A stretch of 28,397 bases of DNA from a virus (lineage: Duplodnaviria; Heunggongvirae; Uroviricota; Caudoviricetes), in the IMG/VR virus record IMGVR_UViG_2663762992_000009. The stretch is one strand, 5' to 3'. A model generated the notes under the pieces. The model was not told the DNA's origin. It searched no databases and saw nothing but the letters and a program-made list of their open reading frames with translations. Below are positions 3,478 to 28,397 of the stretch, piece by piece. Made by a program: the position numbers and the translations under genes. Position 1 is the stretch's first letter. Each line of letters opens with the position of its first letter.

Positions 3478-3711
3478 TCAGTGCGGACACCGTTCAATCC
3501 TCACTAAGCCGTAAAGCATCTGCCTCTTCACTTCGCCGTTCTCTATGGTCGCGTGGCCATATTCATCACATGCAACAGCGATTACTTCACCTTTCTCATC
3601 ATCAGCAGTGAGCGCGCGCTTAACATCAACACCATCAAGATAGACAGTGTACCGCTCTACTCTGATATCAATCTTCCTGCCGGGATCATCATCTAATACA
3701 GTGAGGCGCAT
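3478..3711 (-). CDS. small hypothetical phage protein
   Basis: 77-aa ORF with normal GC content, same strand as neighbours and tightly spaced before the HNH gene; no family recognised. Confidence 0.45.
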   Translation of the reverse strand: MRLTVLDDDPGRKIDIRVERYTVYLDGVDVKRALTADDEKGEVIAVACDEYGHATIENGEVKRQMLYGLVRIERCPH

Positions 3712-4267
3712 TCCCCCCTCCTTGTTATTTATACGCGTGCAATGCGACTATGATTGCCGCACGTCCCTTGTCGGCATGGACGTTTAGCACGTGCTGGCAT
3801 CGGCGTTGCCCTGTTTGTTGGATAGAAATCATGTTGTACTCGGAGAGAAAAACGGAAATGGCAAATAGTGGACAATATTCATAAATAGAGAGAATCCACA
3901 CGGTCGCCGCCCCGTAACAGGTTGGATCGCATAACAGGCCCCATCAAATGAGAATGAATATCGATTATACTAATTAATGCTTAGAACAGGATCATATACC
4001 TGTATCAGGTCAGTCCACTCTTCACCTAAACGTGCAGATGTGTTAATCCGTCTCCCTGCTTAGCACCACTCTTTTGGTGATATACCCGTTTTGGCATAGT
4101 CGGCGAGAGACTGGTGTTGCAGCACTGTCCAGTCCTGTTTTACCATAAACCCCCTAGTTTTATCTTTTAATTAATAGATATTAGTAAGATGAATCAATGA
4201 TGTGCTCAGAGCAAAGCACATCCTGCGTTGCTTTTAGTGCCATTTAACCTATAGAGAGATATGACGC

Positions 4268-4513
4268 GTGAGAAAGTTAATCTGTCTAATTTCGTTCGTT
4301 GCAACATGCGGATTCGGGTATCAGGCATACCAGCATCATGGACTGGCTTCTCTACTGGCTTTCTTAGTCAGCTTAGGGGCTTTTCTAACTGCTGTAGCCA
4401 ACTTAATAAGTGACAAGAAGAAGTCATCCTCTATAAGCCAAGTGATTGGTAATAACTCTTCAGGAATACAAGTCAGTGGTAATTTAACCATTAATGAAAA
4501 GGACAAAAAATGA
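4268..4513 (+). CDS. small membrane protein (two predicted TM helices), first gene of AT-rich moron
   Basis: GTG start with GAGAG about 9 nt upstream; hydrophobic segments LICLISFVATCGF and LASLLAFLVSLGAFLTAVANLI; visibly AT-rich; stop overlaps the next start (ATGA). Confidence 0.5.
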   Translation: MRKLICLISFVATCGFGYQAYQHHGLASLLAFLVSLGAFLTAVANLISDKKKSSSISQVIGNNSSGIQVSGNLTINEKDKK

Positions 4514-5418
4514 GTCTTTTCGATCATAAGTCGGGTCAACATGTCGGAGATGGTTCTACCGCAATCCAAGTAACCGGTGATGCTATCATTGGTAATACTA
4601 CTACTGAAGTAGTTACTATCTGTGAATTAGTAGTTCAAGCACAAATGGCTTCTTTAAAAGAGGAAGCATATAAACTTGTAAACCAACGAGCGATAGAATT
4701 TGGTAATCAGATTGCAGCTAAACTTTCTAGTGATCTTGATCATAAATTAAAAGAGAAATTATCCGACCCTGACATTCAATATTCGATGAACCAAGCTGTA
4801 ACTCAGGTGGCTCGAAAAGGATTTGATGAAAAATCGGAGTTACTTAAAGAGCTAATCGTTTCTAAAATTCAAACTGAAGAAGAAGAGGATAGTATAGTTA
4901 TAGATCACGCTCTTGAGGTGACATCTAAATTAACAACAAACGACATTAAATTTCTCTCTCTAATATATTACCTCAGAAACATAAATAAGATACGAAACGG
5001 TATTAACATGACAGCTCTTGCTGAAAGAAATGAAACTCACTTTGGATTAATTGGCTTTACCGTAGAGCAAAACCATTCAGCCCACAAAGAATACTATGCT
5101 CGCTATGATATTGATTACATTAAATTCTTAGATAAAATAGAGTCTTTGAGAAAAATAAACATTGATCTCCTCAGCTTAAAAGGCGTTATCTTCACAGACA
5201 AGCAATACATAACAAACTATCAAGACCTACTTGAAAAAAGGACTGGAATCACCAGCTTTGAAAGCGATGAGATGTTCTTTGAAACATTTCCTGCTTTAAA
5301 GTTAACTCTAGATGCATTTGGCGTATCGACCATAAATGACTTTAATTCATATGTTTTAAATCCAATTGGCAACCTGATTGCTCAAAACTTTCTTCGGGCT
5401 CGGAACTTCCTTCAATAG
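4510..5418 (+). CDS. hypothetical 302-aa protein, second gene of AT-rich moron (candidate defence/abortive-infection or conversion function)
   Basis: Long ORF in an AT-rich segment; AAGGA RBS about 8 nt upstream; translationally coupled to the upstream small ORF; opposite orientation to the flanking late genes; no family recognised. Confidence 0.7.
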   Translation: MSLFDHKSGQHVGDGSTAIQVTGDAIIGNTTTEVVTICELVVQAQMASLKEEAYKLVNQRAIEFGNQIAAKLSSDLDHKLKEKLSDPDIQYSMNQAVTQVARKGFDEKSELLKELIVSKIQTEEEEDSIVIDHALEVTSKLTTNDIKFLSLIYYLRNINKIRNGINMTALAERNETHFGLIGFTVEQNHSAHKEYYARYDIDYIKFLDKIESLRKINIDLLSLKGVIFTDKQYITNYQDLLEKRTGITSFESDEMFFETFPALKLTLDAFGVSTINDFNSYVLNPIGNLIAQNFLRARNFLQ

Positions 5419-8014: not shown

Positions 8015-8449
8015 CTAATTCCATACAGTTCCCCTGGCGACCGAATAACGCCCTGCCCCCAGTAATGCAACTGACAGAGAGCCAACAAAAAAATACACCA
8101 GGCTTTCTATTCCCCACGCGCCAGTACTTTCGAGCATCCATGTTTCCTCTACCCCCACCAGAAGCCAGGCCACAATCATTGTAAAAGCCAGCAACAGTGC
8201 TGCGGGGCGAGTAAGAACCCCAAGAATAATCAGGCCTGGAGCCAAAACCTCTCCCACAATTGCTCCGTATGCGAAAAATCCAGGTAAGCCGTTAGCTATA
8301 AGCATGCCGCTAATACCTTCAACTCCTGCAAAGAGCTTATGCAAACCATGAAATAACATCAGCCCACCAACAGCAAGTCTTAACAGGAACTTACCAAAGT
8401 CAGCATGGGATAAGATCTGGTTAATTTTATTCAGTACGATAGTAATCAT
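8015..8449 (-). CDS. DoxX-family inner-membrane protein (cargo gene in the Q-to-lysis region)
   Basis: 144-aa ORF with four hydrophobic segments and a DoxX-like N-terminus (FGKFLLRLAVGGLMLFHGLHKL); GGAG SD 9 nt upstream of the ATG at 8449. Confidence 0.7.
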   Translation of the reverse strand: MITIVLNKINQILSHADFGKFLLRLAVGGLMLFHGLHKLFAGVEGISGMLIANGLPGFFAYGAIVGEVLAPGLIILGVLTRPAALLLAFTMIVAWLLVGVEETWMLESTGAWGIESLVYFFVGSLSVALLGAGRYSVARGTVWN

Positions 8450-8859
8450 TGTTCATCACTCCAAGTAAAAAAGGAATGAGAAAAACAAATCACCAGCAGG
8501 CTACAACAGTCAATCTGTTCGGCTGTAAATCACAAACAAGTTAAATAGACTGTTAACACCCACCCTACCTGAATTATTACGCCAAAAAAGGAGATAAAGC
8601 GATAAATCTTATTAGCATGTAACTATTGTTCAACTCAATAGAGCCCATACACTAAGTTTTATTGCCCCTAATAATCCGATGACCAACAGAATGATGCTAA
8701 TTAAGAATACCTGATTCGTTGTAAATCTGATACTGCGTAAATATGCCTTTAGAGCATTAGCAGTTCTGTATTTATTCTGCATTTTCCCGCTCAGAAATCA
8801 CATCAATGACCAATTTAAAAGTAGAGCCCGAATAATCTATCTCCACGACCCGATATGAG

Positions 8860-8963
8860 TGCGGTGCCGGTCGCAACCCGGTGAAACGTATCCATGGTGT
8901 GGTGCAATACATACTGGCAGAATGAATAGTGCCACACCCCTCACGCTGGTGAGATTCACCGCA
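8860..8963. repeat. repeat unit B
   Basis: Same conserved termini as unit A. Read on the minus strand it shows a 7-bp terminal helix, a D-arm-like hairpin (CTCA-CCAGCG-TGAG), a long central hairpin and a T-arm-like hairpin (CCGG-GTTGCGA-CCGG). Confidence 0.7.
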
Positions 8964-9073
8964 GGAGGTAACGTATAAACGGCAGGTGCTTTAGATCAAG
9001 CTTTTTATCATGTCGGCGAAATGAAAAAGGGCTCACCGAAGTGAGCCCTGAATTACCGCCGTTTTCAATTTGC

Positions 9074-9166
9074 CGCAGTGCCGGGTGCCTCCCGATGGTA
9101 TTAACCGCAACGTCAACAGTGGAAGCGAAACCTGACGATGCCCCTACGCTAGTGGGATTCACTGCA
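9074..9166. repeat. repeat unit C (more diverged copy)
   Basis: 5' end gcagtgccgg and 3' end cgctagtgggattcactgca match units A and B with a few substitutions. Confidence 0.6.
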
Positions 9167-9372
9167 ACGGGGGGAACCTATTACCCGCAGACAGCGGCTG
9201 ACAAGATATTTATTTTGCTGAAATGCCAAAATGTGAATCTGCGCATATGAAATTAAACAGAACTTAAACAATTGCAGATACGAACTTGATAGGTTTATGA
9301 AGAAATTACTACGGTCCTCAGGCTTCCCCCTATGAAGCACTTAAGCCTCTTACCTTTTCCAATTGTGATTTT

Positions 9373-9400
9373 GCCCGCTATCTGACGCGGGCCCTTTTTT
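9373..9400 (+). terminator. rho-independent terminator hairpin, plus orientation (element copy 2)
   Basis: GCCCGC (9373-9378) / GCGGGC (9387-9392) with an 8-nt loop, followed by CCTTTTTT; upstream sequence is conserved with copy 1 (atgaagc ... tgtgattttgcccg). Confidence 0.65.
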
Positions 9401-9416
9401 ATACGGAGAACTGAGA

Positions 9417-9491
9417 ATGCCGTGTCATGAAAAAATGGCTATCGCAATCTGTGTTATTGCGCTCATCTTCGCACTGATTTTTGGCAAGTAG
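9417..9491 (+). CDS. candidate 24-aa hydrophobic small ORF (MPCHEKMAIAICVIALIFALIFGK)
   Basis: ATG at 9417 preceded by GGAGA with 7-nt spacing; single hydrophobic helix; lies between a plus-strand terminator and a minus-strand terminator hairpin. Confidence 0.3.
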   Translation: MPCHEKMAIAICVIALIFALIFGK

Positions 9492-9506
9492 GTCCACCTG
9501 AAGCCG

Positions 9507-9541
9507 TCTTTTAAAAACGACAAAACCCGCACCGTGGCGGG
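9507..9541 (-). terminator. candidate tR'-like intrinsic terminator downstream of Q (minus strand)
   Basis: GC hairpin CCCGC/GCGGG (9526-9541); on the minus strand it is followed by UUUUGUCGUUUUUAAAA; about 270 nt downstream of the Q stop. Confidence 0.45.
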
Positions 9542-9807
9542 TTCATCTGGTGTTCATGTTCTGCATCCTTGACCTCGCGATACAGCTTTGCGAAGCATAC
9601 AGTGATTGAAGCAGTTTATGGCTCAAATTGCAATACTTTTTCAGCGACGTAATTTGACCTTAATCATATGCTTTATTACTCTTCGCCTGCATTTAAACAC
9701 TGATATAACTTAGTTATACTTCCATTCATCTTGCACATTGATATTTCCACAAAAATCACCCGCAGCTTTTTACTGTCAAGTTTCAGTTAGTGGATAAGCA
9801 CAACTCA

Positions 9808-10347
9808 TCACACATTCCTATCAATGGAATCCCGTAGCGGGATATAAAGCATGTATTCAACCATATACAGCCATTGGTCGATTCGTCGCCGACAGGTAAC
9901 ATAACTCCAGTCAGGGTATTTTTCCTGAAGTTTCTCAGCTATCTTTCGCTTACTCATTCCCCGTCCTTCGTAACGCTGGTGAAGCAGTGCCTTTAGTGCG
10001 GGATGATCTGCCAGAACTGCCCCGATAACCCGGTCGATTATCAGTGCTTCAGAATCAGTACAGTATGCAAGGTAGCTTTTCTGCTTACCGTTCAATATCT
10101 CACGTAAAAATTGCTCCAGTTCAGGCCTGGTAGTGCCTGATTTTTTAAGCAGCCTGAGCGCATCACGGGCGCCTGTGCGGGTGATTTTTTTACTGACCAG
10201 CAACTGATTGAAGATATTTCCCGGATGGCCATTTCCGATATAAGACCAGCGCCCCCACATTCTTAGCTTTCCCTGTACCCATAACGTCTCAAGCGTAGTG
10301 AGACGAAGCATTTCACCAGGTTTACCTGTCGTGACCGGGTAGATCAT
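9808..10347 (-). CDS. late-gene antiterminator Q-like protein
   Basis: 179-aa ORF immediately upstream of the tRNA/lysis region and after the nin genes; basic C-terminal region with HTH-like character (KRKIAEKL ... RRRIDQWL); start overlaps the upstream gene's stop. Confidence 0.75.
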   Translation of the reverse strand: MIYPVTTGKPGEMLRLTTLETLWVQGKLRMWGRWSYIGNGHPGNIFNQLLVSKKITRTGARDALRLLKKSGTTRPELEQFLREILNGKQKSYLAYCTDSEALIIDRVIGAVLADHPALKALLHQRYEGRGMSKRKIAEKLQEKYPDWSYVTCRRRIDQWLYMVEYMLYIPLRDSIDRNV

Positions 10348-10634
10348 ACTAATCCCTCCTCTCTCCAGATTTGTTGCGTACGCATTACGCCTTCGGCATG
10401 CATTAACCGAAGTTCGGTGCGGGTAAAGTCTGTTGTTTTTATCCGGCCATCAATCAGGTCATGACAACAGCTACAGGCAATAGATGCCTGCATATCGTTG
10501 GGTTTGGTTGATGCTCCACAGGTACCGGCCAGACGGTAATGGGCCAGAACCGAGGTTTCAGGGTTATGGTTACAGTATCCGGGAATTCTCACCTGGCACT
10601 GCCGACCTTTAGCTGCTTTACGTAACCCGGACAT
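10344..10634 (-). CDS. YbcO-like (DUF1364) nin-region protein, putative nuclease
   Basis: 96 aa; Cys-rich pattern (CQVRIPGYCNHNPETSVLAHYRL ... IACSCCHD) closely resembles E. coli DLP12 YbcO as I recall it. Confidence 0.75.
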   Translation of the reverse strand: MSGLRKAAKGRQCQVRIPGYCNHNPETSVLAHYRLAGTCGASTKPNDMQASIACSCCHDLIDGRIKTTDFTRTELRLMHAEGVMRTQQIWREEGLV

Positions 10635-11233
10635 CAGGCGAACTCCAGCAACTGCATCGCTACATTTTCAGCTTCCTGTGGTGTTCTGAATTTTCGACAG
10701 AGGATGAAATTCCACAGGACGTTAAAGACATCCTTATAGAATTGCCGGAACGTATCTTCATCCATACGGGAGAAAGAAATAGATTTGGGAATTCTGCGGC
10801 GACAATTATCCGGGAGAACAACTTCATCGAAGTAACCAGCCTGAACCGTCACCCATGCCCGGTATGGCTCGAAAGACTTCAGTAAGGCAACATCCCCAGT
10901 ACGTAACTGCCCTTCTTTCAACAGAAATTCATCCGCTGCGGAGGTTAAAACATCACCGTATTGATGACCGGACATCTCAACAAGATAAGTGACAAAGCGA
11001 TTTATCAGCGAAAGTTCATCTGGTGAAAGCACACCACCGACAGGTGTCCAGTAATCGAAGCCCAGTTGCAGAAGTTTGAAGAAACGCTTATGAAAGGCGT
11101 AGTTGCGGACACGTCTGAAATCAGCGTGTATCCACTCGCCAGTTTTGACTGAATGTACAAAGCCCTCACTCTCCGGTGTTGCCGGGAGCAGGATCCCTGA
11201 TGCGGTCTGTTTGACCAGTTGTAAGTGCGCCAT
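10634..11233 (-). CDS. conserved lambdoid nin-region protein (DUF1367-like, tentative)
   Basis: 199-aa ORF of normal GC, start/stop-coupled to the YbcO-like gene; family assignment is from memory only. Confidence 0.55.
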   Translation of the reverse strand: MAHLQLVKQTASGILLPATPESEGFVHSVKTGEWIHADFRRVRNYAFHKRFFKLLQLGFDYWTPVGGVLSPDELSLINRFVTYLVEMSGHQYGDVLTSAADEFLLKEGQLRTGDVALLKSFEPYRAWVTVQAGYFDEVVLPDNCRRRIPKSISFSRMDEDTFRQFYKDVFNVLWNFILCRKFRTPQEAENVAMQLLEFA

Positions 11234-11415
11234 CGTTGCTCCGGTGGCGCGACAGGTTGTCAGTTGTTCAGGCTGACGTGGGGATTATAAGCCAATCCGG
11301 GATGATTCGGTAGTATGACAAGAGTTTCTTTATGCTTCGAACTGTACTGGATCAGACTCTAATTGACAGTCTGCTTTGAGCAGGTTGGCTACCGAAAATT
11401 TGGCGATTTAGATCG

Positions 11416-12456
11416 TCATCGAACATTCGGTGATATTGCTATCTTTAGATCACTAGTAAGCATCGCGGCCTGCTTTTCTAAAGCCTCTAACATAAAATCT
11501 GTTTTGTCTTGTATCCTAACGAGTAAATAGAATGGTTCACTACTCGTACAGGTTAAACGTGATGTTGTAAAGTCATCACGGTGAGGTATTAATGCGCGAT
11601 AATTTCCTTCAGCGATAAACATAAAGCGAGCATTAGGATGTTCACTGAGCCACATATACTTATTCCTGCAAAAGAAAGTATCGCGTGTGTCATACTTCAT
11701 GGCAAATCCAAAACCGACTTTTATGATGGATAACGTATGTATACTAAATGCAACATATGAAATGCAGCCAATAAGAAATAATGGGACGAAAACTGACATT
11801 AAATAGTTATTATCATCATCAGTTGGCGTTACTTTCCTTTTCTTTACTTTTGAGGGCATCAATATTAAACAAATAATGCAAACAAGGTAAATGATGCAAT
11901 ACAATATAAAAATAAAAAGTAATGCTACAACTGCCGTCATGAGTTTATTGAATGTAGCATCAAATGGAATGTCAAACAAATTGGAAATTAGCGAGCGTGC
12001 AATATAATATGAAATTAATGATACAATTACCCACACATATTTAATTCCCAGGTTAATTTTTATGGCTATGTTTTTTTCTTCATTATCGAACGATTTTATG
12101 TGAGATGATATTGTGTATGTAATACACAATATCGTCACAAAAGCCAATGTATATGGAATGATGGTATTTATATAACCAATAACGTTAAAGGAAACAATTG
12201 TTAATAAAAACAGAAATACCGACAACAGTGCGGCATCTTGCGTTTTTTTATAATTTTTTCGAAGGCGAACGGCCTGTTGACTGGATGACTTTTTATTCCA
12301 ATTATTTTGTACGATTAATCCGCTGAGAATAATCATACCAAACCAAATAAGAATGGGGTATACAGGATCACTCTGAGGTATGATGACGAGCACTGCCATA
12401 AAAAACAATAAACTGTGAACAATCCCGAGGTGTAAGGAAGAGTATATACTTTTCAT
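11416..12456 (-). CDS. AT-rich polytopic membrane protein with C-terminal soluble domain (cargo; candidate superinfection-exclusion/defence protein)
   Basis: 346-aa ORF, strongly AT-rich; about seven hydrophobic segments in the first ~230 aa, then a ~110-aa hydrophilic tail; AAGG SD upstream of the ATG at 12456; about 180-bp gaps on both sides. Confidence 0.7.
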   Translation of the reverse strand: MKSIYSSLHLGIVHSLLFFMAVLVIIPQSDPVYPILIWFGMIILSGLIVQNNWNKKSSSQQAVRLRKNYKKTQDAALLSVFLFLLTIVSFNVIGYINTIIPYTLAFVTILCITYTISSHIKSFDNEEKNIAIKINLGIKYVWVIVSLISYYIARSLISNLFDIPFDATFNKLMTAVVALLFIFILYCIIYLVCIICLILMPSKVKKRKVTPTDDDNNYLMSVFVPLFLIGCISYVAFSIHTLSIIKVGFGFAMKYDTRDTFFCRNKYMWLSEHPNARFMFIAEGNYRALIPHRDDFTTSRLTCTSSEPFYLLVRIQDKTDFMLEALEKQAAMLTSDLKIAISPNVR

Positions 12457-25033: not shown

Positions 25034-25258
25034 GTGGACGCATTATTACGATACGCAACAAACAGAATTATCGAACTGGAGACCATGCTGTTACCCGCAA
25101 TACCGGAAATCATCCTTCGGGATTACCGTGGCAAGAAGTACACCAAGGACAAGCAAATTACTAGCTGTGGTAATGCGGTACCACCGCAGTTAGCTGAGGC
25201 GCTGGTGAGAGCTAACCTGCCTGAAATGTGTGTACAGCGTGAGGATCAGGCTGCATGA
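25034..25258 (+). CDS. small ORF carrying a DNA cytosine-5 methyltransferase motif-X-like segment (possible methyltransferase remnant)
   Basis: GTG start with GGAGGA 4-5 nt upstream; segment KQITSCGNAVPPQLAEALV resembles the C-terminal motif X of C5 methyltransferases; 74 aa is far too short for a complete enzyme. Confidence 0.4.
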   Translation: MDALLRYATNRIIELETMLLPAIPEIILRDYRGKKYTKDKQITSCGNAVPPQLAEALVRANLPEMCVQREDQAA

Positions 25259-25608
25259 AAAAACATATCTGCATGTTTTGTGGTGAACCGGCCACGCTGC
25301 TCTGCGATGGGAATCTCGGCTTTCCTCCAAAAGATGACCGTGGCAGAGAATGCATTGACGCATTCCACCAATATACCTGCGATGCGCCCATGTGCAGAAA
25401 ATGTGGCACGCAGATGATGCGCATGTTCGTATCCGGGCGGAAACCTTATGCGGGGATCCACACAGTAGATCACTGCCCTATTTGTCTGCGTGATCTGCCA
25501 ACCTATCCAGCCCATGTGCGAAGGACATCTACTCGCAGGAGCAGGCAGAAGTTATCCGCGCTTCGCATTGGGCTGGTTACCAGAATGACCATACGAAACG
25601 GCTGGTAA
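25255..25608 (+). CDS. Cys-rich zinc-finger-like hypothetical protein
   Basis: 117 aa; CxxC pairs (CMFCGE, CRKCG, CPIC); start overlaps the upstream stop. Confidence 0.5.
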   Translation: MKKHICMFCGEPATLLCDGNLGFPPKDDRGRECIDAFHQYTCDAPMCRKCGTQMMRMFVSGRKPYAGIHTVDHCPICLRDLPTYPAHVRRTSTRRSRQKLSALRIGLVTRMTIRNGW

Positions 25609-25728: not shown

Positions 25729-25947
25729 ATGATTCAGCAAATCGTTTTTAATGAAGAATGGATGGTAGAAAAAAAACTACAGGATCGGACTGGTTTAAAT
25801 GACCGCCAGATTGAGAAATACAGGCAAAATTGCTGGATTGAAGGGGTTCATTTTAAAAGAGTATCTCCCTTAGGAAACCTCAGAAGTTCTCGCGGAACGA
25901 CCTGGTACAACTACCCCATGATTAACAAGTTTATTCAGGATTCCTAG
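25729..25947 (+). CDS. xis: excisionase-like protein
   Basis: 72-aa ORF immediately upstream of and nearly abutting the integrase gene; segment [27 protein letters not shown] is typical of putative excisionases of Rac/CP-933-type prophages. Confidence 0.65.
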
Positions 25948-25949
25948 CG

Positions 25950-27197
25950 ATGGCTGCTTTACCAACAGGTGTAGAAATCAGAGGTAGTAGCATCTGTATC
26001 TGGTTTATGTACAGAGGAAAACGTTGCCGCGAAACTCTCAGAGGATGGAGCATAACACCTGCTAATATCAGAAAAGCAGGTAATCTGCGCTCAATTATCG
26101 TCAGTGAAATCAACATGGGCGAGTTCGACTACCAGACTCGCTTCCCATCCTCCAAAAAAGCAATAAAAATTGTCACTACGGTTTCAGTCAGAACTCTAGG
26201 CGAACTCTGTGATCTGTGGCTGTCGATAAAAGAGACTGAACTGGCGGCTAACACCTTGCGCAAAACCAGCTCGCAGCTCGACACGCTGAAATTCATTATC
26301 AATAAAAACACGCCACTTTCGACGATTCGCCACAGCGACATTCTGAACTACCGCAACGAGCTGCTAAACGGAGAGACAAATTACCGAAACGCCACGAGAG
26401 GAAATAAAACCGGCCGTACCGCGCGCACGGTTGATAATTACATTTCCCTGCTCTGCTCCCTGCTCCGTTTTGCGCAGCACTCAGGGTTTATTAAGCACAA
26501 ACCTTTTGAGGGGGTTCGGAAGCTGCAAAAAGCCCGGATCAAACCGGACCCGCTCACAAAGCAGGAGTTTGCACAGTTGATGGAAGCAGAATACGGCCAG
26601 AGCCAGAATCTGTGGAAATTTGCAGTATATACGGGCCTTCGTCATGGTGAACTTGCTGCGCTGGCGTGGGAGGATGTGGATCTCGAGGCGGGAACAGTCA
26701 GCGTGTGCCGTAATCTGACCATTATCGGTACCTTCGGGCCGCCAAAGACAGATGCAGGCTACCGGACAATAAAGCTGCTGGAACCTGCGTTGGAAGCGTT
26801 GAAAGCACAGCGTGAACTTACCGCCCTCCAGCCAAAGTCAAAAATCGTTTTTAACCACCGTGAATATGGAAGGACAGAAACCCAGCGCGTGCACTTTGTT
26901 TTCATGCCAAGGATGCGTAAAGGCGAGCAAAAACCGTATTACAGCGTATCGAGCATCGGGCACCGTTGGAACGCTGCCGTAAAACGTGCTGGCATTCGTC
27001 GTCGGAATCCATATCACACACGGCATACTTTCGCCTGCTGGTTGTTATCCGCCGGTGCAAACCCGTCGTTTATCGCAAGTCAGATGGGACATGAAAATGC
27101 ACAAATGGTTTATGAAGTATATGCAACATGGATGGATGATATGAACAAAGATCAAATTGAACTAATTAATAGAAACTTACTAAACTCTTTATTTTAA
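25950..27197 (+). CDS. int: tyrosine site-specific integrase (lambda/Rac IntR-like)
   Basis: 415 aa; N-terminal arm-binding-like region (LPTGVEIRGSSICIWFMYRGKRCRETL); catalytic signature GLRHGELAAL ... HTRHTFACWLLSAGANPSFIASQMGH ... VY (R, H-x-x-R, Y). Confidence 0.9.
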   Translation: MAALPTGVEIRGSSICIWFMYRGKRCRETLRGWSITPANIRKAGNLRSIIVSEINMGEFDYQTRFPSSKKAIKIVTTVSVRTLGELCDLWLSIKETELAANTLRKTSSQLDTLKFIINKNTPLSTIRHSDILNYRNELLNGETNYRNATRGNKTGRTARTVDNYISLLCSLLRFAQHSGFIKHKPFEGVRKLQKARIKPDPLTKQEFAQLMEAEYGQSQNLWKFAVYTGLRHGELAALAWEDVDLEAGTVSVCRNLTIIGTFGPPKTDAGYRTIKLLEPALEALKAQRELTALQPKSKIVFNHREYGRTETQRVHFVFMPRMRKGEQKPYYSVSSIGHRWNAAVKRAGIRRRNPYHTRHTFACWLLSAGANPSFIASQMGHENAQMVYEVYATWMDDMNKDQIELINRNLLNSLF

Positions 27198-28397
27198 GAA
27201 AGATGATATAAACATCGTACAATTCAAAATCAGATTACTGAATGATAATGCCGACACTAAACCGAATATTTTATATAACGTGTTACATTGAGAATCCAAT
27301 GCATTCTCTTTTTTATTAAGCTCCGTCAACTCTAACTTTTTCAACTCATCACGCATTGTCCTAAAAAGAACACTATACTCTGACTGACATTCTTGCACCA
27401 ATACTTTTTGATAATTTGTAAGATAATATATGGTGAACGTCGTATATAAAGAAAGAACTATAGCTGCCATATTTAAAACCCACGAGTTTACATTATCAAA
27501 TTTCCCCATGGCAGCAAAACTGATTATTCCAGATATAGGAATGGCAAGTGACCTTGTAAGGGTGTCATACATTATGGAATTGAGTTTAGATAAATAATCC
27601 CTGAATTTCTCTTGGTACTCCTTTCTTATTTTTTCAAAACTAAACCCGACCGTAAACGAAAGGTAATTTTCTTGGAAAATCCGTGAGAACAATGTAAAGT
27701 CGGTTAAAATTTTTGAAAGTCGATCTTCTTTCTTTACTCTCCATAAAAAAGAGAACAATACGTTCTGTAGAATGTGTTTTTTCTCCTGTTCATGCAAGAG
27801 GTCAGAGAATAATTTTTCAAAACTTGAAAACCCATCAAATTCGTAAGCTAAATCTTCAAATTTATAGTTAAGATCTAAATACAATTTATTTTTTGATAAA
27901 AACAACAACTCTCTCCCGTTCTCCCCATCAGAACAATCTGTAAGTATTTTCCAAATTTTCGAAACTTGAAAATACCGTAATATTTCATTCCGGTTATAAT
28001 CATCAGGACAAATTGTGCATTTTCCTTCATTCGTAGTTGATGAAATTAAAATAAACCGATTACCAGCAAGAGGTCTATTTGCAACCAGCTCTTTTTCATC
28101 ATAAAAAACTTCGATCTGCCCTCTTAACCTGTCAAGGTTCATGCTGACAATAAAATATTTTACCCCTCCACTTTGCAGCATTGAGGGAGAATCGGACCAA
28201 GCGTGAAAATTACGTTTATAAATTTTAGAATTAAGTTCTACTTCATATTGAGGTTCCAGTAGGTATTGCTCACTACGTTTAAATGCGAGATCAAATACTT
28301 CCTGCTCAAATTGAAGTTCTAAAGTAAGAAAGCCATTATCGTATCCCATTATTTTGGATTTATTTAATATCTCCTTTATATTTTCAAAGCTTACCAT
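27189..28397 (-). CDS. AT-rich hypothetical protein with C-terminal TM helices, convergent with int (N-terminus at or beyond window edge)
   Basis: 402-codon ORF, strongly AT-rich; 3' end overlaps the int stop by 9 nt; C-terminal hydrophobic segments (AIPISGIISFAAMG, WVLNMAAIVLSLYTTFTIYYL, IFGLVSALSFSNLIL); ORF runs to the last base of the window. Confidence 0.7.
   Translation of the reverse strand: MVSFENIKEILNKSKIMGYDNGFLTLELQFEQEVFDLAFKRSEQYLLEPQYEVELNSKIYKRNFHAWSDSPSMLQSGGVKYFIVSMNLDRLRGQIEVFYDEKELVANRPLAGNRFILISSTTNEGKCTICPDDYNRNEILRYFQVSKIWKILTDCSDGENGRELLFLSKNKLYLDLNYKFEDLAYEFDGFSSFEKLFSDLLHEQEKKHILQNVLFSFLWRVKKEDRLSKILTDFTLFSRIFQENYLSFTVGFSFEKIRKEYQEKFRDYLSKLNSIMYDTLTRSLAIPISGIISFAAMGKFDNVNSWVLNMAAIVLSLYTTFTIYYLTNYQKVLVQECQSEYSVLFRTMRDELKKLELTELNKKENALDSQCNTLYKIFGLVSALSFSNLILNCTMFISSFLK

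Follow-up and report, generated by a model that had tools for sequence, protein, structure and literature searches.

The 402-codon open reading frame (ORF) at the right-hand end of the window, by which we mean the whole 28,397-nt stretch of viral DNA analysed here, is probably the gene for the membrane effector of a two-gene abortive-infection system that is based on a nucleoid-associated protein (NAP) and carried as AT-rich cargo by a Rac-like prophage at ttcA. We base this assignment, which is made by analogy, on homology of the ORF product to the DS-1 effector, pairing of the gene with a NAP gene, mobility of the two genes as a unit, protein architecture, the published function of related systems and the position of the gene in the prophage. 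As judged from sequence, the cassette is most likely a divergent member of a system type described in 2025-26, and not a new type.

The gene and its junction with int

The features of the region to which we refer are as follows.

25729..25947, plus strand: excisionase (phrog_539; DUF1233 in the contig annotation)
25950..27197, plus strand: Rac-type tyrosine integrase, 415 aa (Arm-DNA-bind_2 and Phage_integrase)
27138..27197, plus strand: AT-rich final 20 codons of int, 20% GC, the right-hand edge of the cassette's AT-rich block
27189..27197: 9 bp shared by the two convergent genes, whose stop codons occupy 27189-27191 and 27195-27197
27189..28397, minus strand: putative membrane effector (DS-1B/Pag2B-like), complete 402-codon gene
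27549..28397, minus strand: codons 1-283, predicted cytoplasmic part, comprising an alpha/beta domain (~residues 1-180) and a helical region
27549..27698, minus strand: codons 234-283, long juxtamembrane helix bearing the most conserved motif of the ORF family
27192..27548, minus strand: codons 284-402, membrane module, comprising a hairpin (~283-299 and ~305-325) and a C-terminal anchor (~377-398)

A preliminary description of this DNA, made from the window alone, had reported an AT-rich gene of 402 codons that converges on int with a 9-bp overlap, and had placed its N-terminus at the window edge. Both observations were confirmed. The GC content is 32.3% in the ORF, compared with 48.0% in int and 46.8% in the window, the overlap runs from 27189 to 27197, and the ATG occupies the final three bases of the window. 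At the composition of the ORF, a frame open over 402 codons would arise by chance with P ~1e-15, and there are 16-47 stops in each of the remaining five frames of the region; the ORF is therefore no chance frame. Nor is it cut by the window edge, since a Salmonella-annotated protein (P0001) that differs from the ORF product at 2 residues is also 402 aa long, and full-length homologues range from 401 to 406 aa. The gene is thus real and complete.

No intrinsic terminator was predicted on either strand at the int/ORF overlap or across the cassette, and a promoter scan across the cassette gave predictions at chance level. We observed that the effector gene abuts int convergently, with an overlap of 9-10 bp or a gap of 4-27 bp, beside integrases of two unrelated families. 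The protein sequence of the int tail is homologous to the tails of other Rac-type integrases; the idea that this tail had been rebuilt from the end of a host gene was rejected because the tail aligns with them.

Location of the cassette between attL and int

The preliminary description had offered two readings of the ORF: a cargo gene lying between int and att, or a host gene that was the target of integration at its 3' end, which phage sequence then rebuilt. It had also named two observations that would bear on them, namely an att core separating int from the ORF, and orthologues of the ORF, with typical host GC content, at the same chromosomal position in prophage-free strains. The 26-bp att core of Rac is found, in Salmonella contigs near-identical to the window, in the 5' end of ttcA, ~1.5 kb past the start of the ORF. 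This core, TTGTTCAGGTTGTATTGTTCTTTCTT, is an exact repeat at both annotated ends of Rac in MG1655, and it is identical in ttcA at positions 8458-8483 of contig L002, beyond the cassette. A search that allowed up to 3 mismatches detected no att core in the window, either at the int/ORF junction or elsewhere. The location of the Rac core in ttcA, beyond the ORF, thus bears out the first reading: the ORF is cargo of the prophage, carried between attL and int.

The second reading could appeal to the presence of the ORF at the same position in two strains without the full prophage (L001 and L004). In both, however, int fragments flank the cassette on both sides, from which it follows that these loci are prophage remnants and not empty sites; the cassette is intact, but attR and everything of the prophage past int codon ~346 have been lost, and a search for attR in the two strains found none. 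A host gene is also at odds with the location of the att core in ttcA and not at the ORF/int junction, with the GC content of the cassette (32-35%, against 50% in ttcA), and with the occurrence of homologues at other att sites, alongside different integrases, and in other elements. Moreover, none of 5,426 complete E. coli genomes matched the ORF by megablast, and a scan of species-representative genomes for relatives gave one locus only. Given where the att core lies, and given the mobile distribution, we regard the host-gene reading as refuted, with next to no chance of being correct.

The intact cassettes of L001 and L004 could also be taken to indicate a toxin-antitoxin-like addiction module, in which a membrane toxin restrained by the NAP would stabilise the prophage end or remnant and would not provide immunity. 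Modules of this kind often include a membrane toxin. Yet a useful defence gene would equally be expected to persist after prophage decay, and neither gene of PANGU, discussed below, was toxic singly, the NAP there acting as an activator and not as an antitoxin. We therefore consider an addiction function very unlikely.

The prophage resembles Rac of E. coli K-12 in its integration site and 26-bp core in the ttcA 5' end, in its type of integrase and excisionase, and in its RecE/RecT early region; as for a Rac-type prophage at ttcA, the core in the ttcA 5' end and the adjacent Rac-type int and xis are both present. The two differ at the attL side. In Rac, nothing intervenes in the 51 bp between the end of intR and ttcA, whereas in the Salmonella locus the position next to ttcA is occupied by a vestigial int 3' end, and a 2.2-kb NAP-effector cassette with ~0.2 kb of AT-rich intergenic DNA upstream of it lies between the vestigial and the active int. 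In IMG/VR contigs the cassette lies within 1-1.6 kb of the prophage ends, which are software predictions and do not by themselves prove packaging.

Possibly, the terminator-less convergent abutment of int and the effector gene is functional and not accidental, with the int 3' fragment possibly a single-crossover scar, although we think this unlikely. If it were so, int read-through at induction would yield RNA antisense to the effector/NAP mRNA, silencing the abortive-infection module in the lytic cycle of the prophage, and transcription of the cassette in the lysogen would dampen int. The int 3' fragment that separates attL from the cassette may have been left by a single-crossover insertion, in which case cassettes would move between prophages with the conserved int 3' end serving as homology arm. 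An int 3' scar as a general feature of the cassette was rejected, as it was seen in the Salmonella/Enterobacter ttcA lineage only and is absent in Pantoea and in the tRNA-Ser prophages.

Relationship to NAP-effector systems

The ORF product, which the preliminary description had called unrecognised, can now be described from its sequence as a distant homologue of the validated effector of DS-1. Pfam and PADLOC 2023 gave nothing usable, and Foldseek gave no significant match; NCBIfam NF053869 (DS1_2_antiphage) matched residues 136-326 (50.8 bits, E 1.3e-13). The same model matched all 28 close homologues of the ORF (best E 7e-18) and all 10 members sampled from the wider superfamily (44-93 bits), although neither the ORF nor any of the 28 reached its equivalog cut-off of 315 bits. 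In direct comparison with the DS-1 effector WP_000150292.1 (404 aa), BLASTP gave 24% identity over 113 aa (E 2e-6). By hhalign, the same protein scored 92.3% against the profile of the ORF subfamily and 98.8% (E 5.6e-17, 225 columns) against a 135-sequence superfamily profile that includes the ORF.

DS-1, a validated defence system from the DefensePredictor study, consists in E. coli of the YejK-like NAP WP_000355468.1 and WP_000150292.1 (NCBIfam NF053868 and NF053869). A comparable NAP gene accompanies the ORF. In every contig that carries P0001, a gene for a YejK/NA37-like NAP of 341 aa ends 5 bp before the ORF ATG; it sits just outside the window, and we infer its presence there from contigs that are 99.4% identical over the last 2.8 kb. 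The NAP gene is the decisive clue to the ORF, and lying beyond the window edge it was invisible to the preliminary description. Its product matched Pfam NA37 (1.8e-42), YejK (4e-44) and DS1_1 (5.1e-6). It scored 25.7 bits with NF053868 (DS1_1_antiphage), under the 330-bit equivalog cut-off, and 151 bits with the housekeeping YejK model NF001557, under the 341-bit cut-off; it is distinct from the chromosomal yejK, of which it is a diverged, mobile paralogue. PADLOC 2023 had no model for this NAP, nor one for the ORF product.

The cassette and DS-1 therefore share a two-gene organisation, a NAP gene followed by a gene for a ~400-aa protein (the gap in DS-1 is 2 bp), as well as effector length (402 vs 404 aa), a conserved juxtamembrane motif and C-terminal hydrophobic helices. 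They differ in that effector identity is ~24% over the alignable core and both proteins fall far under the equivalog cut-offs, in that the NAP lacks ~40 N-terminal residues present in DS-1A (NA37 match at residues 42-382 of 391), and in the location of the Salmonella cassette between attL and int of a prophage. The ORF belongs to a different subfamily from the experimentally tested systems.

The pairing with a NAP gene held wherever we looked. The ORF is always paired with a NAP gene, which in every context examined has the same orientation and lies 2-17 bp away or overlaps, and the pairwise identities of NAP and effector are correlated with r = 0.955, ie, the two proteins co-diverge. These observations are consistent with a predicted operon in which the NAP gene is first and the ORF second. 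Adjacent genes for NA37 and a ~403-aa protein were found in six mobile-element contexts, and also in a Klebsiella phage, as follows.

ttcA, with a Rac-type int (Salmonella, Enterobacter, Pantoea)
tRNA-Ser, with an int unrelated to the Rac type
tRNA-Gly, an islet with a P4-like int, the pair oriented as int
D5-primase element
Klebsiella phage P7641, where the pair adjoins lysis genes

The pair is thus mobile; the GC content of the cassette is 31-35%, versus ~50% in its flanks (ttcA 50%). Megablast of int plus ORF against a phage collection gave no match.

These contexts also bear on the proposal that the NAP and a membrane tether serve the prophage's own biology (DNA anchoring or compaction, int/xis expression, or excision) and not defence. 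The tight convergent abutment with int in two unrelated integrase families, with no terminator predicted between the genes, would fit such a role, as would the nature of YejK-type proteins, which are DNA-binding nucleoid proteins. However, the pair also occurs without a convergent int, in the P4-int islet (same orientation), in the D5-primase element and next to the P7641 lysis genes, and the ORF is homologous to a validated defence effector. A role of this kind appears highly improbable to us.

The architecture of the ORF product is consistent with a membrane effector. The hydrophobic C-terminal helices noted in the preliminary description were borne out by hydropathy and by an AlphaFold2 model (mean pLDDT 82.7). 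Kyte-Doolittle analysis gave segments at ~283-299, 305-325 and 377-398, with moderate peaks of 1.46-1.56 in a 19-residue window, and these match the positions of the modelled helices (285-296, 303-351 and 358-401). C-terminal hydrophobic segments are present in 145 of 147 superfamily representatives, and a conserved amphipathic helix lies between the hairpin and the C-terminal anchor. The region of the ORF that aligns best with DS-1B is the juxtamembrane helix of codons 234-283, whose family motif is Y..F.VGFSF.KIRKEY.EKFRDYLSKLN....TLTRSLAIP. A Foldseek search with the model against PDB and BFVD found no significant structural relative, the non-significant matches being helical bundles (ClyA, CorA and designed bundles; best E 0.08 and 0.014), and a profile search of PDB sequences gave no match.

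With Pfam and Foldseek, no recognisable catalytic domain was found in the ORF product, and this, together with a prophage-borne, AT-rich, membrane-anchored gene in an accessory position, would also suit a membrane protein that acts independently of the NAP, in SieB/Imm-like superinfection exclusion or in blocking of injection, the NAP being functionally unrelated. Against this are the adjacency of a NAP gene in every context, its co-divergence with the effector, and the requirement for both genes in the related systems that have been tested. The probability of a NAP-independent protein is in our view very small.

Proposed function and its implications

The closest functional parallel to the proposed NAP-dependent effector is PANGU type II. 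For PANGU-Ecu, it was reported that both genes are needed, that the outcome is abortive infection and that Pag2A relocalises upon T4 infection (bioRxiv 10.64898/2026.04.06.716658). Pag2A binds the N-domain of Pag2B with a KD of 19 nM; for PANGU type II itself, neither the step that activates the effector nor its action on the membrane is established (same preprint). Shared with the cassette are the bicistronic arrangement of a YejK-like NAP and an effector that is soluble in its N-terminal part and TM in its C-terminal part, and a widespread, modular and horizontally moved distribution; the likeness of the ORF to Pag2B rests on the description of Pag2B. The C-terminal TM domain by which type II is recognised has its counterpart in the hydrophobic helices of the ORF product. 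A strongly acidic DNA-mimic surface (DMK) has been reported for Pag2B; the sequence does not make one evident in the ORF product, whose N-terminal part (280 residues) is mildly acidic (net charge -5, pI 5.5; -2 to -9 among homologues). By likeness to Pag2B, codons 1-283 of the ORF are presumed to encode the NAP-binding region. The word 'prophage' is absent from the preprint, which does not discuss att-int cargo. In PANGU type I, the NAP Pag1A likewise leaves the nucleoid when this is damaged and then activates the operon partner, but that partner, the GRel toxSAS Pag1B, is a soluble alarmone synthetase, with no membrane protein involved and no homology to the ORF.

From this literature we infer a trigger, a NAP-effector interaction and a membrane action for the cassette. 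In a healthy lysogen the NAP would stay on the nucleoid. An incoming lytic phage that degrades or remodels host DNA would release it, and the released NAP would bind the cytoplasmic N-terminal part of the effector. The C-terminal helices would then damage the inner membrane, so that the infected cell would no longer support phage growth.

These findings suggest a probable function, by analogy, for a hypothetical protein family of ~1,000 clusters at 50% identity. Neither Pfam nor PADLOC 2023 detects the effector, and its NCBIfam score lies below the cut-off; for annotation its operon partner is the key to recognition. Prophages in Salmonella, Enterobacter, Pantoea and other Enterobacterales would carry NAP-based defence of the DS-1/PANGU kind as cargo, with the attL-int junction as a repeatedly used cargo site and a cassette that, in some strains, outlasts the prophage. 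As a subfamily far from the tested systems, it would provide a useful test of the generality of the NAP-sensor mechanism.

Convergence of the ORF with int

As the preliminary description had it, an AT-rich gene of 402 codons converges on int, the gene for a Rac-type tyrosine integrase, and the two overlap at their 3' ends by 9 bp (27189-27197):

27189..28397, minus strand: the ORF, 402 codons, its ATG falling on the final 3 nt of the window
25950..27197, plus strand: int, 415 aa, converging on the ORF

GC content is 32.3% in the ORF, 48.0% in int and 46.8% in the window, and the fall begins within int, where the last 60 nt are 20% GC. These last 20 codons (27138-27197, plus strand) can still be recognised as coding for the tail of a Rac-type integrase, so that the compositional edge of the foreign block falls before the int stop codon, within the gene itself. 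At the ORF's composition, 402 codons would stay free of stops by chance with a probability of about 1e-15; the other five frames of this stretch contain 16-47 stops. The ORF is complete, as judged from a 402-aa Salmonella protein on record, which differs from its product by two residues, and from full-length homologues, which are all 401-406 aa. The C-terminal transmembrane helices proposed earlier were borne out, in that hydrophobic stretches at about residues 283-299, 305-325 and 377-398 coincide with helices predicted in an AlphaFold2 model (mean pLDDT 82.7).

Attachment site and integrase remnants at ttcA

Contigs with a near-identical ORF protein were all from Salmonella enterica, and matched the window at 99.4% identity over its final 2.8 kb. 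Their gene order is dbpA, ttcA, the 3' fragment of an integrase gene (68 aa), an NA37/YejK-like gene for a protein of 341 aa (the nucleoid-associated protein, NAP), the 402-aa ORF (5 bp from the NAP gene), then int and xis, and the RecE/RecT early region of a prophage resembling Rac. The annotated ends of Rac in E. coli K-12 are marked by the exact 26-bp repeat TTGTTCAGGTTGTATTGTTCTTTCTT. Its left copy lies within the 5' end of ttcA, in agreement with Liu et al. (2015), who placed attL inside ttcA and noted Rac-like prophages at the same site in Salmonella. The identical 26-mer occupies the same place in Salmonella ttcA (8458-8483 of contig L002), and the arm next to it on the phage side is homologous to the corresponding arm in Rac. 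An att repeat between int and the ORF, named beforehand as evidence against the original proposal, was looked for; no core-like sequence was found in that interval or elsewhere in the window. With the core in ttcA and none between int and the ORF, attL has the ORF on its phage side, and the ORF is cargo carried between att and int, one of the two readings first offered. The other, that the ORF is a host gene whose 3' end was the integration target, is refuted both by where the att core lies and by the mobile distribution described below.

The integrase 3' fragment (codons ~346-411; L002 8556-8762, ~1.2-1.4 kb past the right end of the window; also at about 3573-3767 in comparison contig L017) has the att core of ttcA on one side and the NAP gene on the other, exactly at the position of the K-12 Rac intR end, and its DNA is 81% identical to the active int over codons 346-396. 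It was found in Salmonella and Enterobacter, and was absent in Pantoea and in tRNA-Ser prophages. This fragment and the AT-rich end of int look like the scar of a recombination that brought in the NAP gene and the ORF, a putative effector gene (together, the cassette).

Comparison with strains without the prophage had been suggested as a check; two Salmonella contigs, L001 and L004, lack the prophage and contain the ORF. Co-linearity there ends within int, and the prophage is gone from position 11418, inside int, onward. In the interval 8458-11847 of these contigs, int fragments lie on each side of the intact cassette, and neither contig has an attR core; these are prophage remnants and not empty sites. 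In both, the predicted defence cassette has outlasted its phage.

Further passengers were observed in the window:

4510-5418, plus strand: ORF of 302 aa; second AT-rich island, GC about 0.34; no match in Pfam or PADLOC; NCBIfam LPO_1073/Vpar_1526 family, 2.9e-30; probably another moron
8015-8449, minus strand: DoxX-family membrane protein (Pfam 1.1e-20), an unusual passenger within the prophage
11416-12456, minus strand: ORF of 346 aa; third AT-rich island, GC about 0.32-0.35; no match in Pfam, PADLOC or NCBIfam; cargo, and possibly a further accessory or defence gene
25034-25258, plus strand: 74-aa ORF, faintly similar to type II cytosine methyltransferases at their C-terminal end; probably a remnant
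25255-25608, plus strand: Cys-rich 117-aa ORF directly after the 74-aa ORF, without family match

The NAP-effector pair and its homology to DS-1

An NA37 gene lies directly upstream of a gene for a ~403-aa protein in all contexts examined:

Contexts of the NAP-effector pair
ttcA prophages with Rac-type int: Salmonella, Enterobacter ludwigii (74% identity), Pantoea agglomerans (50%)
tRNA-Ser prophage with an unrelated 336-aa integrase: Salmonella, Citrobacter
tRNA-Gly islet with a P4-like integrase: E. coli, other Enterobacteriaceae
D5-primase element: Serratia
Klebsiella phage P7641: a much more distant pair, the two genes overlapping

Related cassettes adjoin tRNA-Ser(tga) in the prophage with the 336-aa integrase (contig L008, 4641-4728) and tRNA-Gly(ccc) in the islet (contigs L013 and L014, 3397-3470); thus, three different att sites have each captured this two-gene module. 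Cassettes are 31-35% GC, with flanks of ~50%, and NAP and effector identities co-vary (r = 0.955 for 15 non-independent pairs from six systems). The pair is a single mobile unit. Its strict pairing and co-divergence do not fit an exclusion protein acting independently of the NAP, and a part played in int control, or in how the prophage handles its own DNA, is made less likely by occurrence of the pair away from any integrase. The cassette abuts int convergently, with no terminator, and this arrangement is found again with two integrases that are unrelated; it could link expression of cassette and integrase.

The ORF protein had been described as unrecognised. This holds for Pfam and for PADLOC (2023), the defence-finding tool used; PHROGs returned only phrog_5023, a family without an assigned function, and no structural relative of the model was found among solved or viral predicted structures. 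It does not hold for NCBIfam, where NF053869 'DS1_2_antiphage' matched with E 1.3e-13 and 50.8 bits, significant though below the cut-off of 315. The upstream 341-aa protein matched Pfam NA37 (1.8e-42) and YejK (4e-44), with a weak match to NF053868 'DS1_1_antiphage, nucleoid-associated anti-phage protein' (5e-6). In DS-1, a validated E. coli defence system of two genes from the DefensePredictor study, YejK-domain NAP WP_000355468.1 is followed 2 bp on by 404-aa WP_000150292.1. Using the effector sequence from that paper's supplementary table, BLASTP gave 24% identity to the ORF protein over 113 residues (E 2e-6), and hhalign gave 92.3% against a 28-sequence subfamily profile and 98.8% (E 5.6e-17, 225 columns) against a 135-sequence superfamily profile that includes the ORF. 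The best-aligned region is the most conserved segment of the family, a long helix that ends in '...LAIP' and continues directly as the first of the hydrophobic helices. When 1.84 billion representatives were searched with a profile, 1,019 clusters matched (E <= 1e-3), nearly all of ~400 aa; C-terminal hydrophobic segments occur in 145 of the 147 representatives listed, and all 10 members sampled matched DS1_2 (44-93 bits).

A predicted mode of action

The PANGU preprint (bioRxiv 10.64898/2026.04.06.716658) describes, as its type II, exactly the architecture seen here: a YejK-like NAP (Pag2A) and an effector (Pag2B) that is soluble in its N-terminal domain and transmembrane in its C-terminal one. 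Protection needs both genes, neither is toxic singly, and the mode is abortive infection; T4 infection takes the NAP off the nucleoid, and the NAP binds the effector N-terminal domain at nanomolar strength. In type I, phage-induced genome degradation is the trigger, and escape mutants map to T4 EndoII (PANGU preprint). An addiction module would account for retention of the cassette in the remnant strains, and conflicts with the reported lack of toxicity and with the reported role of the NAP as activator.

Homology and architecture argue for PANGU-like logic in the ORF cassette. A superinfecting lytic phage would damage the nucleoid, the prophage NAP would report the damage and activate the ORF membrane protein, and this would stop the cell; trigger, NAP-effector binding and membrane action are all predicted by analogy. 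Confidence is lowered by scores far under the equivalog cut-offs, by an N-terminal part that is only mildly acidic (net -5, pI 5.5), by moderate hydropathy peaks and by the location of the partner NAP gene outside the window.

Among known systems, DS-1 and PANGU type II come nearest to the cassette, and it shares with them gene order, partner type, protein length, architecture and significant homology. It differs in the ~24% identity of the ORF to the validated DS-1 effector, in a NAP shorter than that of DS-1, in that both proteins miss the NCBIfam equivalog cut-offs, and in its position as cargo between att and int. By these comparisons, the cassette appears to be a further putative member of the DS-1/PANGU type II-like systems.
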